Assembly: GCA_016783425.1 (NCBI GenBank)
Contig: JADHWP010000002.1
Span: 1-44,227, forward strand
Source: Candidatus Shapirobacteria bacterium
Lineage (GTDB): Bacteria > Patescibacteriota > Microgenomatia > UBA12405 > BS750m-G30
Direction of reading: 5' to 3'
DNA: 44,227 nucleotides
The position numbers and the translations under genes are program-made. Below the pieces are notes generated by a model. It saw only the letters and a list, made by a program, of their open reading frames with translations. It made no database searches and was not told where the DNA came from. This document shows positions 1-27,497 of this stretch, in pieces (within the stretch, counting starts at the first letter, position 1; each line of letters opens with the position of its first letter).

Positions 1-129
1 TCCAGAGGCGGTATCAGGAGAGAACGATTATCCCTCTATCTTTCAGAATATGTTTGGCGGTATAATAACAGAGGTTTGTCGATTGATAAACAGATTAATA
101 AGTTGTTAGATTTAGTGGCAAAAACTTGA
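1..129 (+). mobile_element. 3' end of an IS1595-family (ISXO2-like) transposase ORF, 5'-truncated by the window edge
   Basis: Frame +1 is open from base 1 to TGA at 127-129 and reads SRGGIRRERLSLYLSEYVWRYNNRGLSIDKQINKLLDLVAKT. The L-YL-E-x-x-RYN-R tail resembles the C-terminus of IS1595/ISXO2-type DDE transposases. It is absent from the ORF track because it has no start in the window. Confidence 0.5.
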
Positions 130-386
130 CTTTACCCAAAGATACGCTTTTCCCACTTGGACAATTGCCTCCTTGCCTAAAACTTTAAGAAAGTTACATA
201 CTTACCACTCACAATTATTGTCTGATCAATTTGGGGGGACAAGCCAAGTAGACGAGGAAAGAGTACAAATGGTTTTTATCACTCCCCAAAAACGAAGGGA
301 ATTTCTGGAAAGATTTGTTTAAAAACCTAATCCAGTTTAAAAATTGCCCCATTTGGCAAGCAAATTTTGGTAGAATATAAATTGAA

Positions 387-1250: not shown

Positions 1251-2372
1251 TCACTTTCCCCATACCCCAGGAATTTGGGCGGGGCAGTTTGGGGCTTGGC
1301 CGGCCTGGTCAATGAGATTTTTTTCAATAAAATAGCCGCGGCGCTGGATAAGGGGCTGCCGATTTTGGGGACAGTAAGTAGTGCTTCCCTCTAAATCATC
1401 AATGTTACCGGTATAAACGTAATTAAGGCCTATCTCCAGGCAAATCTTTCTCGCTTCTTTTAGAGTTTTTTCCGGAGTGGGCGGGAGATTAAGCAGTTTG
1501 TATTTAGGCCAAAAGCGGGACAGATGAAGAGGGACATCAGGGCCGAGATTATCTTTAATCCAAGTACAAAGTTGGGCAACTTCTTCTAAGTTATCAGTAA
1601 ACCCGGGAACAACAAGATGTACCAGCTCCAGCCATTTGCCCGATTGGTGAACGGTTTTAATGGTTTCCAGCACTGGTTCCAAATTGCCCTTGATTAGGGT
1701 TTGGTAGGTTTCAGCCTTGATGGATTTAAAATCAATTTTAACCGCGTCAAGATAAGGCAGGAGTTGTTTTAAGGGTTCCTGGTTAATGTAGCCGGCGGTG
1801 ATAATAACGGTTTTTAAATTATTTTGTTTGGCAAGCTTAGCAATATCAAGCATATATTCATACCAGACAGTCGGCTCATTATAGGTAAAAGCAACTGCCT
1901 CGGCCTTGGCTTTTAAAGCCTCATCCACCACCTGCTGGGGAGTCATGTCGAGTGAGGCAAGATCTTCCGGTTGGCGGTGGGCAATGTCCCAGTTTTGGCA
2001 ATATTGGCAGTCAAGATTACACCCGGCAGTAGCTAAAGAGTAAATCTTGGTTCCGGGCAGAAAATGGTAAAGCGGTTTTTTCTCAATAGGATCAACATTA
2101 ATTGATACCGGTTTACCATAAACCAGGCTATAGAGCTTGCCGTTGATATTTTCCCTTGCTTTACAAATTCCTCTTTGGCCGGGGGCTAAAACACAGCGGT
2201 TAGGACAAAGTTGACAGCGGACATTGCCATTATCTAAAGTTTCATAAAAACTGGCTTCTTTTAAATCTTGAGGATTAGGAGTTTTTTGAAAACTAGCCTT
2301 TTGTTTGATAACGACCAAAACAGAAAGGAGCACCCCAAAAATGATCACTAACAGCCCAAGATTCTTTTTCAT
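1251..2372 (-). CDS. AmmeMemoRadiSam-system-type radical SAM enzyme (pyruvate formate-lyase activase-like), with N-terminal membrane anchor
   Basis: Contains CQLCPNRC...GICKAREN, DPIEKKPLYHFLPG and the radical SAM triad CNLDCQYC. The N-terminus MKKNLGLLVIIFGVLLSVLVVI is a hydrophobic anchor or signal. Confidence 0.8.
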   Translation of the reverse strand: MKKNLGLLVIIFGVLLSVLVVIKQKASFQKTPNPQDLKEASFYETLDNGNVRCQLCPNRCVLAPGQRGICKARENINGKLYSLVYGKPVSINVDPIEKKPLYHFLPGTKIYSLATAGCNLDCQYCQNWDIAHRQPEDLASLDMTPQQVVDEALKAKAEAVAFTYNEPTVWYEYMLDIAKLAKQNNLKTVIITAGYINQEPLKQLLPYLDAVKIDFKSIKAETYQTLIKGNLEPVLETIKTVHQSGKWLELVHLVVPGFTDNLEEVAQLCTWIKDNLGPDVPLHLSRFWPKYKLLNLPPTPEKTLKEARKICLEIGLNYVYTGNIDDLEGSTTYCPQNRQPLIQRRGYFIEKNLIDQAGQAPNCPAQIPGVWGK

Positions 2373-2395
2373 CTGCTTATTATATAATATCTTTA

Positions 2396-2842
2396 ATGAG
2401 CGATTTTAAGGTTTTGGCCTGGTTGGACTGTCCTTTCGAAAGAACCAATGATCCTTATCCGGGCTTGTGCGATCTTTATCTTGACACTAATCAAAACCAA
2501 ATTTGCGACCACAGCGAAGCTGGTAGTTCCTCTGTTTTTTGGTGGCTTTTTTTGCCGGCAGCCGCTTATTTTATTTACTGGTACCTGGTTAACAAAACTA
2601 GCTTGAGAAGAAAAAGAGGGTTTTTGAGCCTGGTGGGTTTTAAGTATTTTTGGAATTTGGTTCTGCTTCTCCTTTTTATCCCGGCCGGGCTTTTTGGTTT
2701 GCTCTGGGCTTTGGGAGTTAAAACCGAATTAATTTTGTCCTGGCATAATAATTTAGGAATTGTTTTTGTGGTAATTAGTCTGCTTCATATTTTTGGTCAC
2801 TTAGCCTATTTTTTAAAAACTTGGCGGATTTTTAGAAAATAA
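2396..2842 (+). CDS. Small membrane protein with Cys-rich N-terminus and His-containing TM helices (DUF4405-like)
   Basis: 148 aa. The N-terminus has C12, C25 and C37, followed by 3-4 hydrophobic helices, the last with HIFGHLAYF. TATAAT at 2383-2388 lies 7 nt before the ATG, suggesting a leaderless mRNA. Confidence 0.5.
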   Translation: MSDFKVLAWLDCPFERTNDPYPGLCDLYLDTNQNQICDHSEAGSSSVFWWLFLPAAAYFIYWYLVNKTSLRRKRGFLSLVGFKYFWNLVLLLLFIPAGLFGLLWALGVKTELILSWHNNLGIVFVVISLLHIFGHLAYFLKTWRIFRK

Positions 2843-3428
2843 TTAAGAGATTTCGGGCTACAAAATAAAAGCCGGCAATTATTCCCGCCAAGCGCCCCAT
2901 TTTTTGAATTAAAGGAAATTTAGTAAACACGCCAAAAAGAGTAGCTGGGATAAGATAAATACTGGTACCCACAAAAAAAGCCAGAAAATAAAAAAGAGAA
3001 TTAATAGCGCTTCTTAAACTAAAAACATGAGTCAAAGAAGCCATTAGCGGGGGACAGACATTAACTCCCGTTAAAAAGCCCAGTAGAAGCGGCCATTTAA
3101 TTTTTTGAAAGATTTTCAAAGAGCAGAATTTTTTATCAATTTGACCCAGGCCAAAAAGAATAAGCGTAATTCCCATCCAAAGATTAACCAGGGAAATAAT
3201 GGTGTGAATCAGCTGGCTCTGGATCTTTTGGCCAAGATAGCCGAAAGTGAGACCAAAAAGAAAATAACCGATTAGCCTGCCGGCCGAAAATTGCAAAACC
3301 AGGTAAAAGCTTTTTTTACCGCTTCTTTTTTGAGAGAAAAGGATAGGCAGAAAAACAGGCAGGCAAAGACCAAGGCAGTAAACCCCGACTGACAAACCGG
3401 TTAAAAAACCAAAAGTTAAATTTTCCAC
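2832..3428 (-). CDS. Polytopic membrane protein, TauE/SafE or DsbD_2-like
   Basis: 198 aa and about 6 TM helices. Cys pairs sit within helices (YCLGLCLPVF, GVNVCPP). It converges on and overlaps the previous gene by 11 nt. Confidence 0.5.
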   Translation of the reverse strand: MENLTFGFLTGLSVGVYCLGLCLPVFLPILFSQKRSGKKSFYLVLQFSAGRLIGYFLFGLTFGYLGQKIQSQLIHTIISLVNLWMGITLILFGLGQIDKKFCSLKIFQKIKWPLLLGFLTGVNVCPPLMASLTHVFSLRSAINSLFYFLAFFVGTSIYLIPATLFGVFTKFPLIQKMGRLAGIIAGFYFVARNLLIIF

Positions 3429-3500
3429 TGGTATATTTTAACCTTTTAATCTATCAAAAGCAGTTTACTAGTGGTAATTAGCGGAGTTTCTCGTGAACAA

Positions 3501-3540
3501 GCGTCATTCTGATCCCGACGTTACGTCGGGGGAAGAATCT
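3501..3540. repeat. REP-like imperfect palindrome (GTCATTCTGA family)
   Basis: gcGTCATTCTgatCCCGACGttaCGTCGGGggaAGAATct. The inner stem is 3514-3520/3524-3530 and the outer arms are 3506-3510/3534-3538. It shares the GTCATTCTGA head with the elements at 17929 and 24486. Confidence 0.6.
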
Positions 3541-3576
3541 AGCGAAGCGTGCTTGGTAATCTGGTACAATATCTCC

Positions 3577-4149
3577 ATGACCAAGGCAGGTGAATTAAAC
3601 AAAGGATCTTTTTTAAACTGGAAAGGGGATCCGGTGGTGGTTTCAGATAAGGAGTTTTTTAATCCGGGCCGAGGCCACGCCGTAGTTCGGTTGAAATTAA
3701 AAAATTTAAAATCCGGAAGAGTGATCAAAGAGACTTTAATCACTGATGAAAAGGTCGAGGAAATTGAAGTTACCCATCAGCGTTTTCAGTTTTTATACTT
3801 TGACGGTCTTCAGGCGATTTTTATGGATCCGAAAAGTTTTGAGCAAACCCTTGTGGAACGGAAAATAATTGAGGAAGAGGAAAAATATTTAAAAGCAGGG
3901 GAAGACTATGGCTTATTGTTTTGGGAAAACAGGGTGATTGGGATCAGCTTGCCTAAAAAAACTGTTTTCAAAGTTAAAGAAACTGAAAAAGGAGTGCGGG
4001 GCGATACGGTTTCCGCGGCGACCAAACCAGCCACCTTAGATAATGGGTTGATAGTAAAAGTTCCTCTTTTTATAAAGATTGGAGAAGAAGTAATAATTAG
4101 TACGGAAACGGGTGAGTATTTAAGCCGGAAAAACCAAAAGAAGTTTTAA
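3577..4149 (+). CDS. efp: Elongation factor P
   Basis: Reads MTKAGELNKGSFLNWKGDPVVV...NPGRGHAVVRLKLKNLKSGR..., with about 190 aa from the ATG at 3577. The track start at 3493 adds 28 non-homologous residues. The extended -10 TGGTACAAT at 3562-3570 lies inside that extension, 6 nt before 3577. Confidence 0.9.
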   Translation: MTKAGELNKGSFLNWKGDPVVVSDKEFFNPGRGHAVVRLKLKNLKSGRVIKETLITDEKVEEIEVTHQRFQFLYFDGLQAIFMDPKSFEQTLVERKIIEEEEKYLKAGEDYGLLFWENRVIGISLPKKTVFKVKETEKGVRGDTVSAATKPATLDNGLIVKVPLFIKIGEEVIISTETGEYLSRKNQKKF

Positions 4150-4754
4150 AACAAACTTTTTTGAGTTGGCTTTAACTCTAGGGGTTTAATTTTTTCAATT
4201 ATTTGAGGGATTTTTAGAAAATCATCTTTGAGTTGGCTCATCACTTCTCCTCTTCGAAAAGCAGCCGCCGGGTGAAAAAGAGGGTAGAGAGCCAGGTTTA
4301 AGTTTTGCCAAAGGATTTGTTTTAACTGCCCATGCATTCTGGAAATATAAGCTTGGGGAAGAAAGTAATTCATCGCAAAGCGGCCCAGGGTAATGATTAT
4401 TTTCGGCTCAATAATTAGTAGCTGCTCTTTAAGATGGGGAGTACACATCTTAATCTCCTCAGGTAGCGGATCGCGGTTATCAGGCGGGCGGTGTTTTAAG
4501 ATATTGGCCACAAATACTTCTTCCCGCTTTAAGTTAATTTCGGAGAGTAACTTATTTAAAAGATTGCCCGCCGCCCCGCAAAAAGGAATCCCTTTTTGGT
4601 CTTCCCAGTAACCCGGCGCTTCGCCAATAAATACTATCTGGGCGCTAGCGCTTCCTTGTCCGGGAACCGGGTTGGTGGCGGTTTGATAAAGGGGGCATTG
4701 CTGGCAAGTTTTTATTTTTTCGCCAATTTCCTGGAGTTTCCTGGTTTTATCCAT
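4146..4754 (-). CDS. Uracil-DNA glycosylase, family 4
   Basis: Contains CQQCPLY, GEAPGYWED, PFCGAAGNLL and FHPAAAFR. It converges on efp with a 4-nt overlap. Confidence 0.85.
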   Translation of the reverse strand: MDKTRKLQEIGEKIKTCQQCPLYQTATNPVPGQGSASAQIVFIGEAPGYWEDQKGIPFCGAAGNLLNKLLSEINLKREEVFVANILKHRPPDNRDPLPEEIKMCTPHLKEQLLIIEPKIIITLGRFAMNYFLPQAYISRMHGQLKQILWQNLNLALYPLFHPAAAFRRGEVMSQLKDDFLKIPQIIEKIKPLELKPTQKSLF

Positions 4755-5077: not shown

Positions 5078-5431
5078 TTGATTTATTATCCTAGTGATTC
5101 GTCAACAACTGTTTTAATTAAGGCCCTTGCCCAAGTTATTAATGATCAGGGGGGAAAAACTTGGACTGATTTGACTGCTACCTTAGCCTGGGATTCTGGC
5201 TTATTAAATGGGGAGGAATCTACCTTGAAGTATTATGGGTACAGTTTTTCTAGAAAGTTTTGGTTCGGGGCAGGAAATGGAGGTTGTGAAGAAGCAGTTG
5301 CTCTCCATCAGTTGGCCGCTTCCAGGGTTAAGAGAGCAGTTGAAGAAGGCGGATATAGATTTTGTAACGACTCTCATCTTCTATGCGCTCTTGACCTTAA
5401 TAGATATTTAAACCAAGGGGGTGAAAAATGA
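5078..5431 (+). CDS. Hypothetical protein; the reading frame stays open upstream to 4907 (see finding)
   Basis: The track ORF starts at TTG 5078. The same frame is open back to a TAA at 4904-4906 and reads protein-like sequence (ENILVVGLQDTTKPAREFEKPENGLAVLPCV). I recognise no family. Confidence 0.4.
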   Translation: MIYYPSDSSTTVLIKALAQVINDQGGKTWTDLTATLAWDSGLLNGEESTLKYYGYSFSRKFWFGAGNGGCEEAVALHQLAASRVKRAVEEGGYRFCNDSHLLCALDLNRYLNQGGEK

Positions 5432-5601
5432 AAAGGCTTTTAATTTTTCTGCTTTGTTCATGGTATTATTCTACTATACGATTTTTAAATTTACCCTAGT
5501 ACCACATTGGGTACGGGGTTTTGCAGTTACAGCAGGATTCCCCCGAGGAGTCAAAGCCCACCTCGGGGGAGAAGCTTATTGAAAGGGGGTGAGATGAAAA
5601 A

Positions 5602-6378
5602 ATGCGAAATGAAATGAAGTCCGCCTTTGGCGGAAAAAGTAAATTGATTATTCTAGCCGCTTTAATTTTGGCTCTTTGCGTGTTTGTTTTTGTTCCGGTA
5701 AAAGTAGTTGCCCGGGAAGCAACAGACAATCTTGGGCAGATTGATTATGCTCCGCGCCTTTTACCCACCAGTCCGTTTTATTTTTTAAAAGGGATTAAAG
5801 AAAATTTTGAGTTGATATTAGCCAACACTCCGGAAAAAAAGGTAGCCAAAAGAATGGAGATTGCCAACAGGAGGCTGGTTGAGCTAAAAGCCGTAGTTGA
5901 AGAAAAGCCGGAGCTGGCGGAAAAGTTAGCTGGGCGCTACGAGCAACAACTTGAATTACTAGGCCAGGAAGTAGAGCAAGTTGCTGAAGATAAAAGGGAA
6001 GAGTTTGCCGAGCATCTAAGCGAGGTAACTTTAAAACACCAAAGTATTTTGCTTGATGTTTATCAAAAAGTTCCCGAGCAAGGTAAAAAAGGAATAGAGA
6101 ATGCCATAGAGAAAAGTATTAATGGCTATCAACGAGCGATTGAGTCGGTTTCCGAAGAAAAGCAGGTACAGATAAAAGAAAAGGTTTTGGAGAGGAAAAT
6201 GGAAGTGATCCAAAAAATGGAGAGAACGGAGGAGCGGGTTAGGCAGGAAGTGAAAGAGGGCGGGGGCGAGGGAGTTGAGGTTTTACAAAGAGTTCGTGAG
6301 CAATTGAGGGAAAGCGCGCCTCTGAAAACTGGGGTCGAGGAAGTTAATGTTCAGTTAAAGCAGATCCAAGGGCAGTAG
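5602..6378 (+). CDS. DUF5667-type secreted/anchored coiled-coil protein
   Basis: A signal anchor (LIILAALILALCVFVFV) is followed by LPTSPFYFLKGIKENFELILA and a long E/K-rich helical region, which is typical of the DUF5667 family. Confidence 0.6.
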   Translation: MRNEMKSAFGGKSKLIILAALILALCVFVFVPVKVVAREATDNLGQIDYAPRLLPTSPFYFLKGIKENFELILANTPEKKVAKRMEIANRRLVELKAVVEEKPELAEKLAGRYEQQLELLGQEVEQVAEDKREEFAEHLSEVTLKHQSILLDVYQKVPEQGKKGIENAIEKSINGYQRAIESVSEEKQVQIKEKVLERKMEVIQKMERTEERVRQEVKEGGGEGVEVLQRVREQLRESAPLKTGVEEVNVQLKQIQGQ

Positions 6379-6426
6379 GTTTTTCTAAAACGTGGGGTTG
6401 GGCTTATAAAGGAACTCCTGCGAGGT

Positions 6427-6446
6427 AGTCCGCCAGCTGGCGGACT
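6427..6446. repeat. Perfect 20-nt palindrome inside a larger hairpin
   Basis: AGTCCGCCAGCTGGCGGACT is flanked by GGAAC...GTTCC arms. It is intergenic and not followed by a T-run. Confidence 0.6.
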
Positions 6447-6571
6447 TGAAGGTGTTCCTGCTGATTTGTTATTTTCCTGTTCGTCGAAGCTTTGGGGTTT
6501 AAATTAACCTCATAGTTAAAATTTGAATTTACTCTATGTTACAATAGCGGAAGCAGGGAGAATGGTTTGAA

Positions 6572-6796
6572 ATGAAAAAAAGAGTAAAAAAAACCAAAAA
6601 AATAGATATGATAAAAGCTATGAGCATTCCTCGATACCGGGGTAAACATGTTGTTGTTGCTGGAGGTAAGATTTTTACAGCCAAAACAGGGGAAGGGGCA
6701 TTGAAAATTTTAACTAGGGTGCGGAAAAAATATCCTGAAGAAATTCCGGCAGTTACTTATATTCCCAAGGCTGACACTTTGATTCTATGGCTTTAA
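6572..6796 (+). CDS. DUF5678-type small protein
   Basis: 74 aa with YRGKHVVVAGGKIFTAKTGEGALKILTRVRKKYPEE. Upstream are TGTTACAAT at about 6536-6544 and a GGGAG ribosome-binding site. Confidence 0.55.
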   Translation: MKKRVKKTKKIDMIKAMSIPRYRGKHVVVAGGKIFTAKTGEGALKILTRVRKKYPEEIPAVTYIPKADTLILWL

Positions 6797-7194
6797 AATT
6801 TAAATTTAGGAAAGAAAAATCTTCACTTTTAGGAGTAATTTATCGGCCAGTAGCCCAAATGCGTTTTTGGTCCGAAAATGGAAAGTATTGGACGGAAGTA
6901 TGGGTAATTGTTGATACTGGGGCTGATTATACTTTACTGCCCCGATTTCTTGCTCAAGATTTACAAATTGATCTGGAAAAAGATTGCCGGATTTATAGCA
7001 CTTTTGGTGTTGGCGGAAGCCAGCAGGTTTATTTTTTACCAAAAATAAAAGTTAAACTGGGCCAATGGAATCGAGAAATCCCGGTTGGCTTTCTCGATAG
7101 TGATGAAATTCCTCCCCTTGCGGGCCGCCATCTTTTTCTGGAGACTTTTGGAGTTTGTTTTTCCAAGAATCATATTGTTAGTTTTAGTAAATAG
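6787..7194 (+). CDS. Retropepsin-like (clan AA) aspartic protease
   Basis: 135 aa with the active-site motif VIVDTGADYTLLP. It overlaps the preceding gene by 10 nt. Confidence 0.65.
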   Translation: MALKFKFRKEKSSLLGVIYRPVAQMRFWSENGKYWTEVWVIVDTGADYTLLPRFLAQDLQIDLEKDCRIYSTFGVGGSQQVYFLPKIKVKLGQWNREIPVGFLDSDEIPPLAGRHLFLETFGVCFSKNHIVSFSK

Positions 7195-7218: not shown

Positions 7219-9498
7219 ATGGATAAAAGATATCAGCCTCAACTGTTTGAGCAGAAAATTTATAAAGAGTGGGAGAAAAAGGGCTTGTTTACGCCGAAAG
7301 TGGATAAAAAGAAAAAGCCCTTTACGATTCTTTTGCCCCTGCCTAATGCCAGCGATCCCATGCACGTGGGCCATGTAATGTTTGTCATTGAAGATATCAT
7401 GATTCGTTATCATAAAATGCTGGGCGAACCAACTCTTTGGCTGCCCGGGGGTGATCATGCCGGCATTGAAACCCAATTCGTTTTTGAGAAAAAATTGGCC
7501 AAAAAAGGAAAGAGCCGCTTTGACTATGACCGAAAAACTCTTTATCGGATGATTTGGAAGTTTGTGGAGAAAAATCGCAAGCTAAATATGTTTCAGATGA
7601 AAGAACTGGGGTTTGCTCTCGATTGGTCTCGCTATCACTATAGTTTGGAACCGAAAATAGTGGAGCAAATTTTAGCCACTTTCAAAAAACTTCACGATGA
7701 TAATTTAATTTATCGGGGAGAAAGAATTGTTAATTACTGCACCTATTGCGGCACCGCTTTTTCTGATCTGGAGGTTGATCATGTTGAAAAAGATGATTTT
7801 CTTTATTATCTTGATTACGAATCAGTTCAAATTGCCACTACCAGGCCGGAAACTATTTTTGCGGATGTGGCCGTAGCCGTTAATCCGAAAGACAAAAGAT
7901 ATAAAAAGTTAATAGGTAAGGAGGCCACTATTCCTTTAATTAATAAAAAAGTAAAAATTATTGCCGATGATTTGGTAGAAAAAGAGTTTGGCACGGGAGC
8001 TTTAAAAATTACTCCCGCTCATGATGCTCTTGATTTTGAAATTGGCCAAAAGCATCATTTACCCCTAATTACTTGCATTGAGTTTTTCGGAAAAATGATC
8101 AATACGATTAAAGAAATTGATGGCCTTTATCCCAAACAAGCGAGAAAAAAAACCCTTGAATTGCTTGAAAGATCGGGAAAGTTAGTTAAAACCGAGCCCT
8201 TGCGCCACACTATCGGCATTTGTTATCGCTGCAAAAACATTATTGAGCCTCTGCCCACTTCCCAGTGGTATGTTAAAACTAAAAAATTAGCTGAACCGGT
8301 AATTGATTCTGTTAAAAGCGGGGACACAAAGTTATTTCCGCCCCGATTTAAAAAAGTTTATTTAGACTGGATGGAGAATATTCGGGATTGGAATATTTCC
8401 CGCCAAATTGTTTGGGGGCCGCGAATTCCGGCCTGGTATTGTCTGGAGTGTAATCCCGAAATCAGGCTTACTTTTATTTCCAAAAGAGGGAAAAAAGTAA
8501 AAGGAAACTACTCCGGGATTTTCTCTAAATATTCTTTTAAAGAAATAGCCGGAGGCTTGCAGGAATTGAGCGCGCCGGTGGAAGCGGAGTATTTTTTGAA
8601 GGATAAAGGCGAGTGTCCTCGTTGTGGAGGAAGCGATTATTTGCAGGAAACAGACACTTTTGACACCTGGTTTTTATCAGGCCAGTGGCCCCTGACTACC
8701 CTGGGTTTTGATGTTAAAAACCCCATGAAAAGTTCAGAAGATTTTTTCTATTTTTACCCCACCAGCGTTCTGGATACTCTTTGGGATATTTTATTCTTCT
8801 GGGTCGGGCGAATGATGATTTTGGGTTTTTATTTGGCCAACAAAACTCCTTTTGAACTTATTCATCTGCACGCCAAGGTGGTAGATGAGCGGGGGCAAAA
8901 AATGAGCAAAAGCAAGGGTAATGTAGCTAATCCCAGCAAGATAGTCGAAAAGTATGGCGCTGACGCTTTGCGCATGGCTCTTGTTTACGGCATTGCTCCG
9001 GCTAGCAATATTGCTCTATCCGAGAAAAAGATTGAGGCGATGCGTAATTTCACCAACAAACTTTGGAATGCCTCAAGATTCATTTTAATGAATCTTGAAT
9101 CTTCAAACTTCAAACTTCAAACTTCAAAGCAGCTCCTAAAAGTGAAAAGCTTAAAAAATAAAGATGATCAGCAGATTTTGGCTGGTTTGGAAAAGTTGGT
9201 TGAGGAAGTTGATAAGAATTTAAAAAAATACCGTTTTGGCCAGGCCCTGGAAAAAATATACCAGTTTTTCTGGCATCAGTTTTGTGATGATTATTTAGAA
9301 AAAGTTAAAGAAAGGAGGGCGGAGGCTTTGCCGGTTTTACTGGAGGTTTTAGTAACTTGCCTTAAATTGCTTCATCCTTTTGCTCCGTTTGTCACCGAGG
9401 CAATTTACCAGACCTTTAAAGTGAAGCTTAAAAAACATTCTTTGTTTAAAGCGGATTATTTAATGGTATCTGTATGGCCTCAAAAAGATTCTGGCTAA
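7219..9498 (+). CDS. valS: Valine--tRNA ligase (compact form)
   Basis: Class I signatures are PNASDPMHVGH and KMSKSKGN. ValRS-like features include WLPGGDHAGIETQ and the editing-domain motifs TTRPETIFADVAVAVNP and GTGALKITPAHD. ATG 7219 (MDKRYQPQLFEQKIYKEW) is preferred over the TTG track start at 7201. Confidence 0.9.
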   Translation: MDKRYQPQLFEQKIYKEWEKKGLFTPKVDKKKKPFTILLPLPNASDPMHVGHVMFVIEDIMIRYHKMLGEPTLWLPGGDHAGIETQFVFEKKLAKKGKSRFDYDRKTLYRMIWKFVEKNRKLNMFQMKELGFALDWSRYHYSLEPKIVEQILATFKKLHDDNLIYRGERIVNYCTYCGTAFSDLEVDHVEKDDFLYYLDYESVQIATTRPETIFADVAVAVNPKDKRYKKLIGKEATIPLINKKVKIIADDLVEKEFGTGALKITPAHDALDFEIGQKHHLPLITCIEFFGKMINTIKEIDGLYPKQARKKTLELLERSGKLVKTEPLRHTIGICYRCKNIIEPLPTSQWYVKTKKLAEPVIDSVKSGDTKLFPPRFKKVYLDWMENIRDWNISRQIVWGPRIPAWYCLECNPEIRLTFISKRGKKVKGNYSGIFSKYSFKEIAGGLQELSAPVEAEYFLKDKGECPRCGGSDYLQETDTFDTWFLSGQWPLTTLGFDVKNPMKSSEDFFYFYPTSVLDTLWDILFFWVGRMMILGFYLANKTPFELIHLHAKVVDERGQKMSKSKGNVANPSKIVEKYGADALRMALVYGIAPASNIALSEKKIEAMRNFTNKLWNASRFILMNLESSNFKLQTSKQLLKVKSLKNKDDQQILAGLEKLVEEVDKNLKKYRFGQALEKIYQFFWHQFCDDYLEKVKERRAEALPVLLEVLVTCLKLLHPFAPFVTEAIYQTFKVKLKKHSLFKADYLMVSVWPQKDSG
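9101..9128 (+). repeat. Tandem heptamer (CTTCAAA)x4 inside valS
   Basis: cttcaaacttcaaacttcaaacttcaaa, preceded by a degenerate copy cttgaat. It translates as ...SSNFKLQTSK.... Confidence 0.9.
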
Positions 9499-23185: not shown

Positions 23186-24340
23186 TTAGCCCTTAATTAC
23201 CGCCAGGGGGGAGAGTTCGGTGATGATTTCGACCAAATCCTTTTGGTCCTCCATTACTTTACTTATATCCTTGTAGGCGCTAACCGCTTCTTCCAGATCA
23301 GACTGGTGGCGCAGAGTGTGGATAATGCTTTGGTCCTCCAGGCGCTTTATCTCTTTTTTTAAATTCAGCTCTCTGATTGCTTGTTTTCTCCCCATTTTTC
23401 GACCCGCGCCGTGGGAACAGGACAGAAAAGAGTCGGGCTTACCCTTGCCTTTGACAATATAACTTTTACTTCCCTGGGAGCCGGGAATAATACCGAGTTG
23501 TCCTTTTTTGGCGGAAGTAGCGCCTTTGCGGTGTACCATTACTTTTTTTCCAAAATGAACTTCTTCAGCCGCATAGTTATGGTGAATATCAATGGTTTGG
23601 CCAAAAGTAGTCTGGGGAATAATTTTTTGGATTATTTGTTTTATTTTTTCAAGCATCAGCGCTCTGTTCGCTTTGGCAAAATCTAAAGCAAAGTTCATGG
23701 CCGCCAAATATTCCTGGGCTTGGGGATTATTCATTGGCAAACAGGCTAGCTCTTTATCGGGTAAATTAAGATTGTACTGCTGACAATAATTTAGGGCCTG
23801 GCGGTGGTATTCTTGGGCAATTTTAAAGCCAAGGTTGCGAGAGCCGGAGTGGAGCATAATCCAGATAAATCCATCTGAACCCTTTTGAATTTCAATAAAA
23901 TGATTGCCCCCGCCCAAACTGCCCAGTTGATAGCGGGCGGAATTTAATTCTTGCTGGATAATGGGGAGATTGGGAGCGCGGTCAAACCCGCGCCATTCTT
24001 GCTTTATTTTATGATGCTTAAAGCCCAGCGGGATTGCCTTTCTAATTTGGCCCAAAATTTGTTTAAGAGTTTCTGTTTCAATTGATTTGAGATTAGTTTG
24101 AACAGCGCAAACGCCGCACCCAATATCCACGCCCACGCAGTTGGGAACCACCGTGTTTTTAGCGGCCAAAACCGCCCCAATGGGCATGCCGTACCCCTGG
24201 TGGCAATCAGGCAAAATCACAATGTGTTTGAAAGCGAAGGGTAAGTTAGCTAAGTTTTTCGCCTGTTGCAAAGCTTTTTCTTCAATATCTTCCAGCCAAG
24301 GCTTAATCGGTATTTTTTCAGTACTGATTACTTTTTTCAT
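23186..24340 (-). CDS. rtcB: RNA ligase RtcB (3'-phosphate/5'-hydroxyl)
   Basis: 384 aa with PDCHQGYGMPIG, GVDIGCG, HSGSRNLG, HHNY and CSHGAGR. TGCTATAAT (24359-24351 on the minus strand) lies 10 nt before the ATG. Confidence 0.9.
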   Translation of the reverse strand: MKKVISTEKIPIKPWLEDIEEKALQQAKNLANLPFAFKHIVILPDCHQGYGMPIGAVLAAKNTVVPNCVGVDIGCGVCAVQTNLKSIETETLKQILGQIRKAIPLGFKHHKIKQEWRGFDRAPNLPIIQQELNSARYQLGSLGGGNHFIEIQKGSDGFIWIMLHSGSRNLGFKIAQEYHRQALNYCQQYNLNLPDKELACLPMNNPQAQEYLAAMNFALDFAKANRALMLEKIKQIIQKIIPQTTFGQTIDIHHNYAAEEVHFGKKVMVHRKGATSAKKGQLGIIPGSQGSKSYIVKGKGKPDSFLSCSHGAGRKMGRKQAIRELNLKKEIKRLEDQSIIHTLRHQSDLEEAVSAYKDISKVMEDQKDLVEIITELSPLAVIKG

Positions 24341-24351
24341 TTATTTTTTAA

Positions 24352-24612
24352 TTATAGCATGTAGCTTAACGTCTCAATTGTCACCCCTTTTTAACATCTG
24401 AACTGTCCTCTCCAAATGTCATCCCCGAAATAAATTCGGGGCAGGCTCTGAACTCGTTTCAGGATCTGTTTTCTTATCACTTAAGATTCTGAACTAAATT
24501 CAGAATGACTTTTGAAACAATCTCACTAAAAAGTGCTGAACCATATTTAGAGGGTAGACAATTGAGACGTTAAATCAATAGGACAATTGAGAAGTTAAAC
24601 TACATATAGCAA
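24352..24612. repeat. Composite palindromic element: 17-24-nt inverted repeats bracketing a cluster of REP-like hairpins
   Basis: TTAACGTCTCAATTGTC (24366-24382) has a perfect reverse complement at 24557-24573. A third, near-identical inverted copy, GACAATTGAGAAGTTAAAC, lies at 24582-24600. Its flank (ctacatatagca) mirrors the rtcB promoter flank. Confidence 0.8.
24418..24509. repeat. Cluster of three REP-like hairpins
   Basis: CCCCGAA (24423-29) / TTCGGGG (24435-41). CTGAA (24448-52) / TTCAG (24458-62). ATTCTGAA (24486-93) / TTCAGAAT (24499-24506) followed by GAC. The last hairpin is the reverse-orientation homologue of 17929-17952. Confidence 0.8.
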
Positions 24613-24618
24613 TATTGG

Positions 24619-24646
24619 TTGACAGGGGGTATTTTGGTGATATAAT
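24619..24646 (+). promoter_or_regulatory. Sigma-70-type promoter of the T-box/tRNA-Trp/trpS unit
   Basis: TTGACA (24619-24624), a 16-nt spacer ending in TGa, then TATAAT (24641-24646). Confidence 0.75.
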
Positions 24647-24652
24647 ATTTTT

Positions 24653-24922
24653 AATAGCGTTGATGGGGAGGTATGGGCCCCGGAGCCCCTGAACCATGTA
24701 AGGTACAGGGCGCGCTGAAAAGGCGAAAAGATTTTTCTGATTAGCTTTTTCCGGAGAGGAATCCGTAACCAAGTTCCAGACCGATGTCACCGCAAGGTAA
24801 ACAGAGTCGGTTGTGAAGGTCCGAAGCGGTAACGTTCGGACGAAACAAGGTGGTACCGTCTTTATTTTAAAGGCCCTTGTTGGTTCCTAAATTTATTTTT
24901 GGGAGTCAGCAAGGGCTTTTTT
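24653..24922 (+). promoter_or_regulatory. T-box riboswitch leader (tRNA-sensing transcription antiterminator)
   Basis: The T-box sequence is aaACAAGGUGGUACCGUC (24844-24860). The antiterminator has helix A1 ACAAGG (24845-50) / CCUUGU (24875-80), the 7-nt bulge UGGUACC (24851-57) and helix A2 GUCUUUA (24858-64) / UAAAGGC (24868-74). A competing terminator overlaps it. Stem III is GUCCGAA (24819-25) / UUCGGAC (24835-41). A possible IIA/B pseudoknot is CGGA (24752-55) / UCCG (24762-65), with loop GGAA (24758-61) pairing to UUCC (24774-77). Stem I and the specifier are not resolved. Confidence 0.75.
24873..24922 (+). terminator. Intrinsic terminator of the T-box leader
   Basis: A stem of about 16 bp (GCCCUUGUUGGUUCCU 24873-24888 with GGGAGUCAGCAAGGGC 24901-24916, including G-U pairs) has a 12-nt loop and is followed by UUUUUU (24917-24922). 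Its 5' arm shares CCUUGU with the antiterminator. Confidence 0.8.
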
Positions 24923-24936
24923 ATTTGAAAGAACTT

Positions 24937-25007
24937 GGGAGCGTAGCTCAAGGGTAGAGTGCCCGTCTCCAAAACGGGTGATGAGGGTTCAACTCCCTCC
25001 GTTCCTA
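24937..25007 (+). tRNA. trnW: tRNA-Trp (anticodon CCA)
   Basis: Manual cloverleaf. Acceptor GGGAGCG/CGUUCCU (G1-U72 and G5-U68 wobbles). D stem GCUC/GAGU. Anticodon stem CCCGU/ACGGG with loop CUCCAAA. Variable region of 4 nt. T arm GAGGG-UUCAACU-CCCUC. Discriminator A at 25007. No encoded CCA (next bases are CTG). Confidence 0.9.
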
Positions 25008-25084
25008 CTGAAAAATGAGCGAAAGATTTAGGTCGTTACCAGATTGTGTTATTAATTCTCCTGGAAGAAAGGAGGGAGTTTGGC

Positions 25085-26479
25085 ATGGCTTTAAATTTAT
25101 TTGGAACTAAAATTGAGGTACCAGGTTTAGTCGAGGATAAAACTCTTGATTACCTGCTTATCCAGGTAGCCAAAAGGAGCAGTGAAAGAAAGATTTTGGA
25201 TGATTTTTTGGACGATCAGCGCTTGGAGGAATTAGAGGCTAAAGCTAGGGAGGCAGCCAAAGACGAAGTTGAAGATAGCAATGGGCTTAATAAAACACTA
25301 TTGTCTGGTTTTTATGTTGAAGAAATGAAAAGACAGAGATTACCTAATGGCGTTTCTTTATACCATGAGTTAATTTACCGTTTTTTAGAAAAGGAAAATC
25401 CTGATTATCGAAGATATGCGGGCTTATTAAGAAAAGGAGTGAAAGGCTCACACCGCTTATTACCTCCAGATTTTCCTTCAAGTTTTAAAAAAGCGGAAAG
25501 TATCTTGGGTGGGAAATTGCGCAGCGAGTTGGGGGAAAAGGAGCAATTAGAATATTTAACTAGAAAAGAATTTACAACCCAGTTAAGAATTATTGCCCAA
25601 AATTTATTTTTCGGGGCTAATTATGGGCTGGAAAAGGAGGATTTAATTAGGTTTTTAACGGTGATGTATGAGCTAGGAAAAATTGAAACTAGCCAGCCTA
25701 TTACTCCTTCCCGATTAAGGGGCTTGTTAGCTGAAAGCTTAAAAAATAATCAACCATTGGAAATTGTGCATATTAAAAGTTTACGTTTTACCTACCCGGG
25801 TGGGGAGAGCCTGAAGATGCTAGAGGATACTCGGGCGGCAACTCAGCTTGGCTTAAAAGGCGAGCAAAGGTTTTACCCGAGTGAAGAAATTATTTTTGAG
25901 AGGTTAACCAATCTTAGGAAAATTTTTGAACAAGTGGGCCTTAGGGCTAGGGTGACAGTTATTGTTTCTGATCCTGATTTAGATTATTGTTTTCCGCCCG
26001 GGCAGGAGTTTGTTCCTTTAGCTGATGTATCTCGGGCAAGAGTTTCTGCCGGGCGCTATCTTGAGTATTTAAAAACCAATCATCTAAAAGTAGATAATCT
26101 CTGTTCTTTAACAGAATTTTTAGAACAAACAAGTGGGGCTAATAAGTTTCGGTCTGTTTTTTCCCAGTTAGTAGATGAAGGACGAAAAGGAGGAGGGGCA
26201 ACTATTAAACCTAAGATTTTAGAAATGAGAGTTAATGACCAATTTGACCATTATCAACAAATGTTTGGAGAAAAATATACTCGGGGTTTAGCTAGGCAAA
26301 CAGCTCTGGCGCAAATTGCTAATGTTTTATCGCTTTCTGTAGTTTTTTCTTCTTTCTCCACCACTCCTCTGCTAGTTATTGATAGTCGGGGCTTTGAGGA
26401 TCAACTTATTGGTGGTTATCAACCTGATTCAGTAGTTAAATTTTTTACCCGATTTAAGGATCCAACCGGCGTTATCTAA
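25085..26479 (+). CDS. Hypothetical protein (464 aa) of the T-box/tRNA-Trp/trpS unit
   Basis: A strong ribosome-binding site AAAGGAGGG lies 8 nt before ATG 25085 (MALNLFGTKIEVPG). Coding-like sequence runs throughout. I recognise no family. The track start at 25046 is TTG without a ribosome-binding site. Confidence 0.6.
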   Translation: MALNLFGTKIEVPGLVEDKTLDYLLIQVAKRSSERKILDDFLDDQRLEELEAKAREAAKDEVEDSNGLNKTLLSGFYVEEMKRQRLPNGVSLYHELIYRFLEKENPDYRRYAGLLRKGVKGSHRLLPPDFPSSFKKAESILGGKLRSELGEKEQLEYLTRKEFTTQLRIIAQNLFFGANYGLEKEDLIRFLTVMYELGKIETSQPITPSRLRGLLAESLKNNQPLEIVHIKSLRFTYPGGESLKMLEDTRAATQLGLKGEQRFYPSEEIIFERLTNLRKIFEQVGLRARVTVIVSDPDLDYCFPPGQEFVPLADVSRARVSAGRYLEYLKTNHLKVDNLCSLTEFLEQTSGANKFRSVFSQLVDEGRKGGGATIKPKILEMRVNDQFDHYQQMFGEKYTRGLARQTALAQIANVLSLSVVFSSFSTTPLLVIDSRGFEDQLIGGYQPDSVVKFFTRFKDPTGVI

Positions 26480-26507
26480 AAATAATGTTAAAATGGGGGA
26501 GGTGAAA

Positions 26508-27497
26508 ATGAATAAGAGAAAAAGAACATTTTCGGGAATTCAGCCCACGGGGAGTTTGCATATTGGTAATTACATTGGGACAATTAAGCAATGGGTGGAA
26601 ATGCAAAAAGATCATCAGTGTATTTACTGCGTGGTTGATTTGCATGCTATTACTGTTCCTAAAAAACCAGAGGTTTTAAAGGAAAGAATTAGGGAAGTAG
26701 CGGCTTTGTTTATCGCTTGTGGAGTTGACCCGGAAAAATCAATTATCTTTATTCAATCACATAATCCCGATCATTCAGTTTTAAGTTGGATTATGGATTG
26801 TACTGCTTCCATGGGACAGCTGGAGCGAATGACCCAGTATAAGTCTAAGTCTGAAAAGCAAAAAGGCTTTGTTAGCGTAGGCCTTTTTAATTATCCGGCT
26901 TTAATGGCGGCAGACATTCTTTTGTATCAGACTGATGTGGTTCCGGTTGGGGATGATCAAAAGCAGCATGTAGAGCTAACTCGGGATTTAGCTCAGCGTT
27001 TTAATTCACGCTACGGGGAAGTTTTTACTGAGCCGGAGGTAAGTTTACAAAAAGTGGGAGCGCGAGTAATGTCTTTGCAAGATCCTAGTGCAAAGATGAG
27101 CAAGTCAGACGAAGATCCCAATGGAACCATTGATCTACTAGATTCACTTGAGGAAGTAAAGAAGAAAATAATGAGTGCGGTTACTGATTCGGGCAAAGAA
27201 ATTGTTTTTAAGAAAGAAAAGCTGGCAATTAGCAACTTATTGGGAATTTATTCTCAACTGGGAAATATTTCAATTGAGGAGTTGGAAAAAAAATATCAGG
27301 GCAAGGGGTATGGGGAGTTTAAGAAGGATTTGGTTGAGGCGGTAGTGGAGTTTCTCAAGCCTATTCAAAAAAAGTATTATCGGATTATGAAAAACCAGGA
27401 GGGATTAGAAAAGATTTTAAAGCAGGGAGGGGAAAAAGCCAGAGCGATTTCCCAAAAAACTCTAGCTGAAGTTTATAAAGTAATGGGGCTAGGATAA
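26508..27497 (+). CDS. trpS: Tryptophan--tRNA ligase
   Basis: Contains FSGIQPTGSLHIGNYIG (HIGH), VPVGDDQKQHVELTRD and KMSKS (AKMSKSDED). The GGGGGAGGTG ribosome-binding site precedes ATG 26508. Confidence 0.9.
   Translation: MNKRKRTFSGIQPTGSLHIGNYIGTIKQWVEMQKDHQCIYCVVDLHAITVPKKPEVLKERIREVAALFIACGVDPEKSIIFIQSHNPDHSVLSWIMDCTASMGQLERMTQYKSKSEKQKGFVSVGLFNYPALMAADILLYQTDVVPVGDDQKQHVELTRDLAQRFNSRYGEVFTEPEVSLQKVGARVMSLQDPSAKMSKSDEDPNGTIDLLDSLEEVKKKIMSAVTDSGKEIVFKKEKLAISNLLGIYSQLGNISIEELEKKYQGKGYGEFKKDLVEAVVEFLKPIQKKYYRIMKNQEGLEKILKQGGEKARAISQKTLAEVYKVMGLG

Follow-up and report, generated by a model that had tools for sequence, protein, structure and literature searches.

The class-Ic aminoacyl-tRNA synthetase fold has given rise to two ATP-independent enzyme families: the CDPSs, which use aminoacyl-tRNAs, and the isonitrile synthases, which use free tryptophan or tyrosine. 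A further kind of protein, exemplified by GluQRS/YadB and YbaK/ProX, stands alone, is related to a synthetase or encoded together with one, and acts on one tRNA or on its mischarged form. We know of no case in which either of these is fused into the transcription unit of the tRNA gene itself.

Here we describe gene X, found in a 44,227-nt stretch of DNA from a Candidatus Shapirobacteria bacterium (the window, that is, the whole stretch analysed). Its family would form a further class-Ic branch, with an active-site signature of its own and an extra domain of unmatched fold. To our knowledge, it would be the only such branch tied to a single tRNA gene and to a T-box responsive to the charging of that tRNA. 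The function of gene X would bear on how minimal-genome bacteria that are unable to make tryptophan ensure the supply of Trp-tRNA or control its quality.

The gene X family and its tRNA-Trp locus

Gene X is a real gene, and the protein family to which it belongs had no previous annotation. The longest form of its open reading frame starts at GTG 25046 and encodes 477 aa, while the form starting at ATG 25085 encodes 464 aa. Judged by alignment, the latter is the true start, since the homologues begin M-x-N-L-F-G and align to this ATG. The initial annotation could assign no family to the protein, and the searches of Pfam and the PDB that it suggested leave it without one. Sequence-family searches (Pfam, NCBIfam, PADLOC, PHROGs, PDB) gave zero matches; Pfam gave none for gene X as a single sequence or for any of 62 family members, and the PDB gave no real match by phmmer or by profile. 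One PDB candidate, DsbD-alpha (E 0.02), was gone when a profile was used and was discarded as a chance match. A defence-system or phage origin was also dropped, given the zero matches and the housekeeping context.

The family comprises about 80 clusters. The few members that carry a source name come from CPR bacteria and are named Daviesbacteria (a protein cluster and genome records), Shapirobacteria (genome records), Nomurabacteria or unclassified 'bacterium'. The genome records also include the label 'Gammaproteobacteria', which we doubt. Conservation figures refer to an alignment of 62 sequences, which is too diverse for search patterns to be derived from it. A scan of GTDB representative genomes made three additions, none beyond the loci already in the set, and a metagenome scan found five loci, three of them new.

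The tightest partner of gene X is the tRNA-Trp gene, not trpS. A tRNA-Trp gene lies immediately 5' of gene X in all 15 assessable distinct loci, down to about 17% identity (in the window, 76 nt separate the tRNA from the ATG), and trpS lies 3' in 10 of 13 loci, despite differing flanking genes. The Nomurabacteria gene X has tRNA-Trp on its 5' side and no adjoining trpS, and locus L017, which has lost trpS and apparently the T-box, still has gene X beside tRNA-Trp. When the orthologous tRNA-Trp genes next to gene X are aligned (n=15), A73 is found in 14 and U72 in 13. In the window, the trpS open reading frame spans 26493-27497 and the homologues begin at the equivalent of M26508; with this start, gene X ends 28 nt 5' of trpS, as originally given. 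The initial annotation had proposed, from genomic context, a function linked to tRNA-Trp or tryptophan, and had suggested a comparison of gene neighbourhoods. The linkage proves to be conserved, no match to an unrelated family was found, and the Trp-specific T-box unit described below agrees with the proposal, the exact activity, be it transferase, modifier or partner, being a prediction.

The surroundings of gene X are housekeeping translation genes in reduced genomes. The TrpRS of four related loci has a YbaK-type tRNA_edit domain fused to it, which would indicate that mischarging of tRNA-Trp is of consequence in these lineages. Among other neighbours, a 666-aa gene convergent to gene X in L015 is unrelated to it, and L016 has in its operon an inserted glycosyltransferase that, like gene X, is free of tryptophan.

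Table 1. Features of the gene X locus, in positions of the window
Feature	Position	Strand	Evidence or remark
Sigma-70 promoter, TTGACA-16 nt-TATAAT with TG extension	24619..24646	+	12/12 matches to consensus
Predicted Trp-specific T-box leader: short Stem I, Stem II/III region, T-box sequence, terminator	24651..24925	+	Rfam RF00230
Ultrashort Stem I hairpin; loop with specifier UGG (24674-24676), then a purine	24664..24683	+	RNAalifold, four leaders
T-box sequence GGUGGUACC, antiterminator bulge	24849..24857	+	Sequence; UGGU complementary to A73-CCA of the adjacent tRNA-Trp
Intrinsic terminator, 20-bp stem (24871-24918), then T-run TTTTTTATTT	24871..24925	+	Ends 12 nt before the tRNA gene
tRNA-Trp, anticodon CCA, G1-U72, A73, CCA not encoded	24937..25008	+	ARAGORN; Rfam tRNA 66 bits
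Shine-Dalgarno of gene X, AGGAGG	25070..25075	+	9 nt 5' of ATG 25085
Gene X, 464 aa, Trp-free, family without annotation	25085..26479	+	ORF listing, homologue alignment
Predicted N-terminal all-helical domain, aa 1-222	25085..25750	+	AF2 of the domain alone, pLDDT 89.9
Predicted C-terminal Rossmann domain, aa 223-464, class-Ic synthetase/CDPS/IsnA type	25751..26476	+	AF2, Foldseek PDB and BFVD, hhalign
Motif K231-S232-L233-R234, end of strand beta-1; proposed nucleophile Cys/Ser and partner Arg	25775..25786	+	Family alignment
Motif D296-x-D298, after strand beta-2	25970..25978	+	D296 94%, D298 92% conserved
trpS, canonical bacterial TrpRS with HIGH, GxDQ, KMSKS	26508..27497	+	PF00579 E 3e-80; start from homologues (MNKRKR...)

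Predicted regulation by a Trp T-box, and tryptophan content

The sigma-70 site in Table 1 is the sole strong promoter 5' of the operon: among 15 promoter-like sites in the region no other scored above 10/12, and no better-matching promoter was found between the terminator and trpS. The order of transcription read from the sequence would be promoter, Trp T-box leader, tRNA-Trp, gene X and trpS. The leader matches the full RF00230 model (1-219) with a shortened Stem I at 37.6 bits (E 3.4e-6), which is under the Rfam gathering score of 93 bits. This shortfall is explained by Stem I, which is 49 nt long vs 87 in the model. Related leaders scored 54.6 (L008), 41.2 (L007) and 33.8 bits (L013), and the MFE z-score of the leader in the window is -5.1. 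Across four leaders folded with RNAalifold, Stem I consists of 5 bp, with compensatory changes in three of the five pairs and an invariant UGG in the loop. A Stem I loop with UGG and a purine is present in the window and in L007, L008, L012, L013, L018 and L021, and the exact T-box motif also occurs 5' of tRNA-Trp in L007, L008, L012, L013, L016, L018 and L021. The antiterminator arms CAAGG/CCUUG share bases with the 5' arm of the 20-bp terminator; antiterminator and terminator are mutually exclusive. Going by these sequence features, the T-box 5' of tRNA-Trp is real despite its sub-threshold Rfam score.

Since gene X lies in this transcription unit, uncharged tRNA-Trp should induce gene X together with the tRNA and TrpRS. 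That its expression would respond to tRNA-Trp charging had been predicted in the initial annotation, and the prediction is strengthened by the promoter, the Trp-specific T-box, its UGG specifier and the terminator. In this locus, a T-box would naturally control the expression of the very tRNA that is its ligand. A literature search on T-boxes in CPR or Patescibacteria found nothing.

The gene X family contains two tryptophans in 28,289 residues and gene X itself none, against a background of 1.66% in the ORFs of the window and 1.07% in locus ORFs. Such scarcity agrees with the 'cognate bias' expected of proteins that are required when their cognate amino acid is missing (PMC4209129). Without a Trp codon, gene X can be made during Trp-tRNA scarcity. 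The Trp-free composition could also be a simple reflection of membership in a Trp-starvation operon.

Predicted structure and class-Ic relatives

The AF2 model of gene X (pLDDT 88.7, pTM 0.83) predicts two parts, an N-terminal helical domain and a C-terminal Rossmann domain. No structural relative of the N-terminal domain was found by Foldseek in the PDB (best E 0.5, probability at most 0.2), the best match being Lsp1 (E 0.5, probability 0.06), and the fold of this helical domain of about 220 aa is probably novel as modelled. Its reading as a permuted synthetase anticodon-binding domain is unsupported, separate AF2 modelling and Foldseek searching having given nothing. The N-terminal third had been described as acidic and helical; helical it is in the model, but 'acidic' overstates a net charge of just -2 over residues 1-120.

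The top 50 Foldseek matches of the C-terminal domain in the PDB were all TyrRS/TrpRS cores, PIsnA/PvcA or CDPS, with probabilities of 0.93-1.00. The best E value, 5e-4, was obtained with TyrRS 6bqy, and further synthetase matches included 9sfq, 2ts1 and 2jan as well as TrpRS 2quh, 1r6u and 3tze. PIsnA/PvcA matched with E 4-5e-3 and probability 1.0 over 300 aligned columns and gave the highest query-normalised TM-score (0.33-0.34). Many CDPS structures matched too, with target-normalised TM up to 0.60, and a tRNA-dependent CDPS was the top match in BFVD. The structure prediction and Foldseek search suggested in the initial annotation thus lead to enzymes of tRNA or of aromatic amino acids. The nucleotide-binding-type fold surmised there finds its counterpart in the modelled C-terminal class-I synthetase-like Rossmann domain, and the two segments quoted as beta-strand/loop elements, RARVTVIVSDPDL and LLVIDSRGFE, do belong to a Rossmann-type fold in the model (AF2 strands 288-295 and 429-432). 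HIGH and KMSKS are absent from both the gene X sequence and the family alignment, and the domain appears to have lost these ATP-binding signatures.

Family position 232 is C in 40 of the 62 sequences and S in the other 22, and R234 is invariant in all 62. Both C-x-R and D-x-D are retained in the most distant relatives, at 15-20% identity, and D-x-D also in the L018 paralogue. The polar residues that are near-universal across 15-45% identity, namely C/S232, R234, D296, D298, E267, Y325, E380 and R404, look like an active site in the alignment, and Cys/Ser232 ends the strand 225-232 of the AF2 model. The protein as a whole is near neutral, and a conserved basic patch is absent from helix 308-334, the equivalent of CDPS alpha-4 (family mean net charge +0.5).

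In hhalign comparisons, for which we assembled profiles from 112 CDPS and 29 IsnA sequences and also used TrpRS, gene X matched CDPS with a probability of 43% (P 2.5e-4, gene X 289-368 vs AlbC 61-141), which is below conventional significance, IsnA with 3% and TrpRS with 0.2%. For scale, CDPS vs IsnA gave 6% and CDPS vs TrpRS 0.1%. We rejected a placement of gene X inside any of the three by this means, CDPS alone being suggestive and none significant; global and low-mact extensions of the gene X alignments were unreliable. Neither gene X nor any of the 62 members matched PF16715 (even at E up to 10), PF05141 or PF00579.

With the CDPSs (PF16715; AlbC, YvmC, Rv2275) gene X would share a class-Ic Rossmann domain of about 230 aa without HIGH/KMSKS and without use of ATP, the same order of secondary structures, a small, in gene X putatively nucleophilic residue behind the first core strand (Ser in CDPS and Cys or Ser in gene X) and a link to tRNA. 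By our reading of the AF2 model, the secondary structures of residues 225-455 map one-to-one in order onto AlbC, with one extra hairpin. In CDPSs the acyl-enzyme nucleophile is a Ser of the loop that follows the equivalent strand; S37A abolishes labelling (PMC4066775), and the S37C variant of AlbC has been crystallised (4q24). Residue 232 of gene X would correspond to this Ser37 by topology only; a non-significant local hhalign alignment places AlbC Ser37 opposite K231, one residue off. In contrast, the catalytic Tyr/Glu/Tyr and GxSxxN of the CDPSs are not conserved in gene X. In the extended hhalign alignment the CDPS-invariant Y178, E182, Y202 and N40/H203 find no conserved counterparts, and the motifs K-[CS]-x-R, D-x-D and R..AR are peculiar to gene X. 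Gene X further differs by an extra beta-hairpin (240-264), by the 220-aa N-terminal helical domain, and by lacking the basic alpha-4 patch, which is likewise missing from some putative CDPSs (PMC4066775). It also lies in a housekeeping tRNA/synthetase operon, not in a biosynthetic cluster. A literature search on CDPS in CPR bacteria found nothing.

IsnA/PvcA/DIT1 (PF05141) belong to the same fold superfamily as gene X, and IsnA/PvcA act on Trp or Tyr. Gene X resembles them in K-S after beta-1, S-D after beta-2 and a similarly placed Tyr and R..A[RK]. Of the invariant IsnA motifs LPAFP-KSPN, cSDGrVF, TRFL-ED, SIHP and TpWHg, however, only K-S and S-D are shared, and no Fe/2-oxoglutarate oxygenase partner (IsnB/PvcB) was found in the window around gene X or among the called genes of 12 other neighbourhoods. 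Unlike gene X, the IsnA enzymes are not known to be linked to tRNA genes or T-boxes.

The class-Ic synthetases (TyrRS/TrpRS core, PF00579) provide the best Foldseek E value and share the Rossmann catalytic fold; a true TrpRS adjoins gene X, and both sides belong to the aromatic amino acid/tRNA-Trp system. Gene X differs from them in lacking HIGH/KMSKS and the C-terminal anticodon-binding domain, in place of which it has its apparently novel N-terminal domain. As for the stand-alone proteins, their functional logic resembles the one proposed for gene X, but GluQRS differs from gene X in having retained its ATP motifs and YbaK in having another fold.

Proposed function and alternatives

We tentatively propose that gene X is a tRNA-Trp-dedicated enzyme that targets the acylated 3' end, passes through an acyl-Cys/Ser intermediate like that of the CDPSs and serves the supply or quality control of Trp-tRNA under Trp limitation, a reading that we consider quite possible though somewhat short of an even chance. 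The protein would be dedicated to tRNA-Trp and work at its (amino)acylated 3' end without ATP. Cys/Ser232 would attack the aminoacyl ester, aided by Arg234 and by the cluster of D296-x-D298, E267, Y325, E380 and R404. An acyl-enzyme would form on gene X, as in the first CDPS half-reaction, and the acyl group would then be either handed on or removed by hydrolysis, in the latter case as proofreading of mischarged tRNA-Trp. Induction by the T-box and the lack of tryptophan speak for a part in maintaining a stock of correctly charged Trp-tRNA-Trp during Trp limitation, and against gene X draining Trp-tRNA-Trp into a secondary metabolite.

Gene X may adjoin the tRNA gene for the sake of regulation and not because the tRNA is its substrate. 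Gene X could be a small-molecule enzyme that acts, like IsnA/PvcA, on free L-tryptophan, a Trp precursor or a conjugate; we regard this as unlikely, yet as the alternative that deserves most weight. It would be a Trp salvage or modifying step in the T-box(Trp) regulon, with the tRNA gene as a neighbour only through the shared leader. Firmicutes T-box(Trp) regulons include genes of Trp biosynthesis and transport. PIsnA/PvcA are among the best Foldseek matches and head the query-normalised TM-scores, the order of motifs is similar (beta-1 and K-S, a P-x-x-x-E helix, beta-2 and S-D, a conserved Tyr, R..AR), and the helix/beta-1 segment of gene X reaches an hhalign probability of 22% vs IsnA. The lack of a basic tRNA-binding patch fits as well, and so does the Trp-free composition, which is classically a mark of enzymes supplying the cognate amino acid (PMC4209129). 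However, over the whole domain the 29 IsnA sequences yield just the 3% given above, PF05141 matches 0 of the 62 members, LPAFP-KSPN, TRFL-ED, SIHP and TpWHg are absent, and an IsnB/PvcB-type oxygenase occurs in no neighbourhood. Action on free tryptophan would also leave unexplained the bond between gene X and tRNA-Trp in L017, which is without trpS and apparently without a T-box. The absolute adjacency to the tRNA-Trp gene would instead favour a tRNA-Trp-specific maturation or modification enzyme that works on the nucleotide part, at the anticodon loop or the acceptor end, in the manner of GluQRS and leaving the aminoacyl ester untouched. A Trp-free composition fits a factor needed before Trp decoding, a catalytic Cys is common among RNA-modifying enzymes, and the tRNAs have unusual acceptor features in common (A73 in 14/15, U72 in 13/15). 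Nevertheless, we hold such an enzyme to be less probable again: gene X has no ATP, SAM or PP-loop signature, matches no RNA-modification family and lacks a conserved basic surface, and its structural neighbours, the top 50 in the PDB, are all amino-acid-handling enzymes.

The nearest family by profile, and the top match in BFVD, is CDPS, and gene X might be a genuine but highly divergent member that turns Trp-tRNA-Trp into a Trp-containing diketopiperazine, for example a signalling metabolite. It has Ser/Cys at the nucleophile position, and the co-encoded tRNA-Trp could supply the substrate. We consider this improbable, as PF16715 finds no match and the Y178, E182, Y202, N40/H203 signature is absent, while a consumer of Trp-tRNA would be expected to behave in the opposite way to gene X, whose composition is strictly Trp-free and which uncharged tRNA-Trp should induce; tailoring enzymes were not found nearby, and the surrounding genes are those of housekeeping translation in reduced genomes. 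Slightly more improbable still is a non-catalytic pseudo-synthetase that binds Trp or tRNA-Trp and serves TrpRS as a partner, chaperone or regulator. Co-expression with TrpRS in most loci as read from gene order, a synthetase-like fold that lacks ATP motifs, and a tandem placement beside trpS that is compatible with origin by duplication would all suit such a protein. Against it, near-universal polar residues survive at 15-45% identity in an active-site-like pattern, and 3 of 13 loci have lost the association with trpS, whereas that with the tRNA is kept throughout.

We keep as our tentative choice a tRNA-Trp-dedicated enzyme working through an acyl-Cys/Ser intermediate. A more far-reaching role, to which we give the lowest probability of all the readings considered here, is that gene X gives Trp-auxotrophic CPR bacteria a way to correctly charged Trp-tRNA-Trp that depends on tRNA but not on ATP. 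Trp from an activated or scavenged donor might be loaded onto tRNA-Trp via an acyl-Cys, in a reversal of the first CDPS half-reaction, or a precursor aminoacyl group on tRNA-Trp might be converted, which would be a new pretranslational synthesis of an amino acid on tRNA. Either version would explain why gene X is hard-wired to the tRNA-Trp gene, induced by uncharged tRNA-Trp and free of tryptophan, and why some of its partner TrpRSs carry a YbaK-type editing domain.

Gene X within a tRNA-Trp operon

Sixteen distinct loci carrying gene X, the window included, were compared. tRNA-Trp(CCA) lies immediately upstream of X in 15 of the 15 loci with sufficient upstream sequence; among them are L014 and L016, whose X proteins are at ~17-19% identity, and the Nomurabacteria locus L017, which lacks both a neighbouring trpS and an obvious T-box. 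Of the 13 loci in which the downstream side could be judged, 10 have trpS after X, counting L016, where a glycosyltransferase stands between X and trpS. The flanks vary widely (L25/TsaD/TsaE, FtsH, DnaG/sigma-70/LigT, enolase/IMPDH), and the tRNA-X pair is thus the conserved unit. The Shine-Dalgarno AGGAGG 9 nt 5' of ATG 25085, together with homologue starts that align there at M-x-N-L-F-G, identifies this ATG as the real start of X, and the gap to trpS is 28 nt if its likely start is taken. Re-deriving the ORF, tRNA and trpS positions gave the same coordinates and distances as the initial annotation throughout.

Features of the window and of related loci carrying X homologues
Locus	Feature	Coordinates	Strand	Details
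Window	RtcB gene	23186-24340	-	upstream of operon, divergent from its promoter
Window	~245-nt element	24359-24605		between rtcB and operon promoter
Window	consensus promoter	24619-24646		12/12 match
Window	ultrashort Stem I hairpin	24664-24683		UGG specifier in terminal loop
Window	T-box sequence	24849-24857		GGUGGUACC
Window	terminator	24871-24918		20-bp + T-run; 5' arm overlaps antiterminator
Window	tRNA-Trp(CCA)	24937-25008		ARAGORN and Rfam
Window	gene X ORF	25085-26479	+	464 aa from ATG 25085
Window	trpS	likely start 26508		canonical TrpRS; PF00579, E 3e-80
L001	short leader	5640-5889
L005	short leader	5570-5821
L010	short leader	3570-3823
L008	group I intron match	14-211	-	68 bits
L012	LigT/2H phosphoesterase	3943-4521		directly upstream of operon
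L016	GT1-family glycosyltransferase	1632-2663		343 aa, between X and trpS
L018	paralogue of X	2485-4152	-	555 aa
L001	tRNA_edit-TrpRS fusion	7442-8893
L008	tRNA_edit-TrpRS fusion	3198-4664
L010	tRNA_edit-TrpRS fusion	about 5371-6846
L016	tRNA_edit-TrpRS fusion	2733-4163

The T-box control of X proposed in the initial annotation is supported by the promoter, T-box sequence, terminator, UGG specifier and UGGU bulge. The leader covers the entire Rfam model (E 3.4e-6), and its score of 37.6 bits falls below the gathering score of 93 because Stem I is shortened (49 nt versus 87 in the model). In the window and six related leaders (L007, L008, L012, L013, L018, L021), Stem I is a 4-5-bp hairpin whose terminal loop ends with UGG plus a purine, and it covaries (GGGG/CCCC, UGGG/CCCA, CCGG/CCGG, CCGA/UCGG) with compensatory changes in 3 of 5 pairs. 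These short-Stem-I T-boxes of candidate-phyla bacteria score far under the Rfam threshold. The leaders at L001, L005 and L010 are even shorter than that of the window: no Stem I is recognisable, and a T-box-like UGGUGGYRC bulge and terminator come within ~35-60 nt after a -10 box.

The window tRNA-Trp was aligned with 14 orthologous tRNAs. The discriminator is A73 in 14 of these 15 genes; G73 is the usual discriminator of bacterial tRNA-Trp. U72, giving G1-U72 or A1-U72, occurs in 13, and none encodes CCA. Most leaders carry the bulge UGGU, which fits A73 and, in the window, the A73-CCA end of the adjacent tRNA-Trp; L001, L010 and L013 have UGGC. Since no promoter comparable to the 12/12 site was found between the terminator and trpS, the transcription unit runs from the leader through tRNA-Trp and X to trpS. 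The terminator ends 12 nt before tRNA-Trp, too little space for a good promoter, and thus the tRNA appears to be made solely through read-through of the T-box that it binds, which would make this tRNA gene positively autoregulated.

RNA-repair enzymes lie beside the operon in two loci, RtcB (a 3'-phosphate RNA ligase) in the window and LigT/2H phosphoesterase in L012, a proximity that may be accidental or may hint at tRNA repair functions nearby. The ~245-nt element has 24-nt inverted repeats at its edges (92% complementary), four copies of GACAATTGAGACGTTAA against 0.15 expected by chance, and two 26-nt repeats containing TCTGAAC, and may be an insertion of MITE type or an array of operators. 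At L008, the group I intron match, above the Rfam gathering score, precedes the T-box leader by ~1.2 kb.

Protein family and predicted fold

X had no match in any of the sequence libraries searched. A word-indexed search found 14 homologues (39-47% identity) and an exhaustive profile search 81 cluster representatives, with named sources in Candidatus Daviesbacteria, Shapirobacteria and, as a distant member, Nomurabacteria, which we take to be Microgenomates and Parcubacteria. Across a 62-sequence alignment K231 and R234 are invariant, only Cys (40 sequences) and Ser (22) occur at residue 232, and Y237, E267, D296, D298, Y325, E380 and R404 are each at least 90% conserved; the most distant members retain C-x-R and D-x-D, even with K231 replaced by Q. 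In L018, the convergently encoded protein that directly follows X is distantly paralogous to it (hhalign 98%, E 5e-14, spanning X 128-444); it keeps the Cys and D-x-D and lacks K231 and R234. P0069, P0089, P0090 and P0093 resemble such Trp-containing paralogues.

An AlphaFold2 model built on a 15-sequence alignment (pLDDT 88.7, pTM 0.83) is helical over residues 1-222, with alternating strands and helices over 223-464, the C-domain. The top 50 Foldseek matches in the PDB comprise only class-Ic synthetase cores (TyrRS 6bqy, E 5e-4; TrpRS 2quh, E 0.019), isonitrile synthases (PIsnA 9dhm and PvcA 3e59, E 4-5e-3) and several cyclodipeptide synthases (CDPS; TM up to 0.60 on target), and a CDPS is also the top match in the viral structure library. 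When the N-terminal domain was modelled by itself (pLDDT 89.9), Foldseek found no structural relative. HIGH and KMSKS are absent from X, as from CDPS and the isonitrile synthases (IsnA). The fold superfamily of the C-domain is already known. No library or paper that could be searched describes the family, the signature K-[CS]-x-R ... D-x-D, the N-terminal domain or the genetic linkage of X with a tRNA gene within a T-box unit.

CDPS and PvcA/PIsnA sequences were taken from the PDB, both families were expanded, and profiles were compared by hhalign. The C-domain matched CDPS with a probability of 43% (P 2.5e-4; X 289-368 on AlbC 61-141), and X matched IsnA with 3% and TrpRS with 0.2% probability; for scale, the known related pairs CDPS-IsnA and CDPS-TrpRS gave 6% and 0.1%. 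CDPS are therefore the nearest family.

Tryptophan content and possible function

The 62 aligned X members contain two Trp in 28,289 residues, one in an N-terminal extension of P0006, whose start is probably mis-called, and one at residue 6 of P0073. Trp accounts for 1.66% of the window's other ORFs and 1.07% of ORFs of at least 250 aa from all loci, and the contents of Tyr (3.75%) and Phe (5.0%) in X are unremarkable. Background ORFs that reach 400 aa or more all contain Trp except the YbaK-TrpRS fusions; paralogues unlinked to tRNA contain Trp (seven in the L018 protein; also P0069 and P0089). 'Cognate bias' is expected of proteins needed when the cognate amino acid or charged tRNA is missing (PMC4209129); the Trp-free composition of X agrees with this expectation and is consistent with T-box control.

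We regard it as established that X is of this fold class, lacks ATP motifs, carries a conserved polar cluster with Cys/Ser, belongs to a T-box transcription unit, is obligatorily linked to tRNA-Trp and is free of Trp, and we have high confidence in the statements on fold, family and context. Cys/Ser232 lies at the end of the first core strand in the model, a place that may correspond, with a register uncertain by one residue, to Ser37, the acyl-enzyme nucleophile of CDPS (PMC4066775). We tentatively propose that X would work through an acyl-Cys/Ser intermediate at the acylated 3' end of tRNA-Trp, and that it may serve supply or quality control of Trp-tRNA-Trp during Trp limitation, for example by removing noncognate amino acids when Trp is scarce. 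As a whole, this mechanism is possible rather than probable.

Judged by sequence, X is nearest to CDPS yet outside that family: catalytic Y178, E182 and Y202 are not conserved and the basic alpha-4 patch is absent, so that a true CDPS is improbable. IsnA-like chemistry on free Trp finds some likeness in the motif order, which by eye has K-S following beta-1 and S-D following beta-2, as well as a conserved Tyr and R..AR; we consider it unlikely. A tRNA-Trp modification enzyme would also accommodate the tRNA linkage, and we think it somewhat less likely than IsnA-like chemistry and somewhat likelier than a true CDPS. Least probable of all is a non-catalytic partner, which would share the operon and leave the polar cluster without a catalytic part.

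Two features of related operons deserve mention. The L016 glycosyltransferase has no Trp, as if the whole operon were selected for translation without Trp-tRNA. In four related loci TrpRS bears an N-terminal YbaK/ProX-type tRNA_edit domain (PF04073); to our knowledge, TrpRS enzymes do not typically have editing domains. The presence of these domains suggests that, in these lineages, it matters when tRNA-Trp is mischarged. At L021, the ~690-nt gap from X to the matched part of TrpRS would fit a further YbaK-TrpRS fusion.
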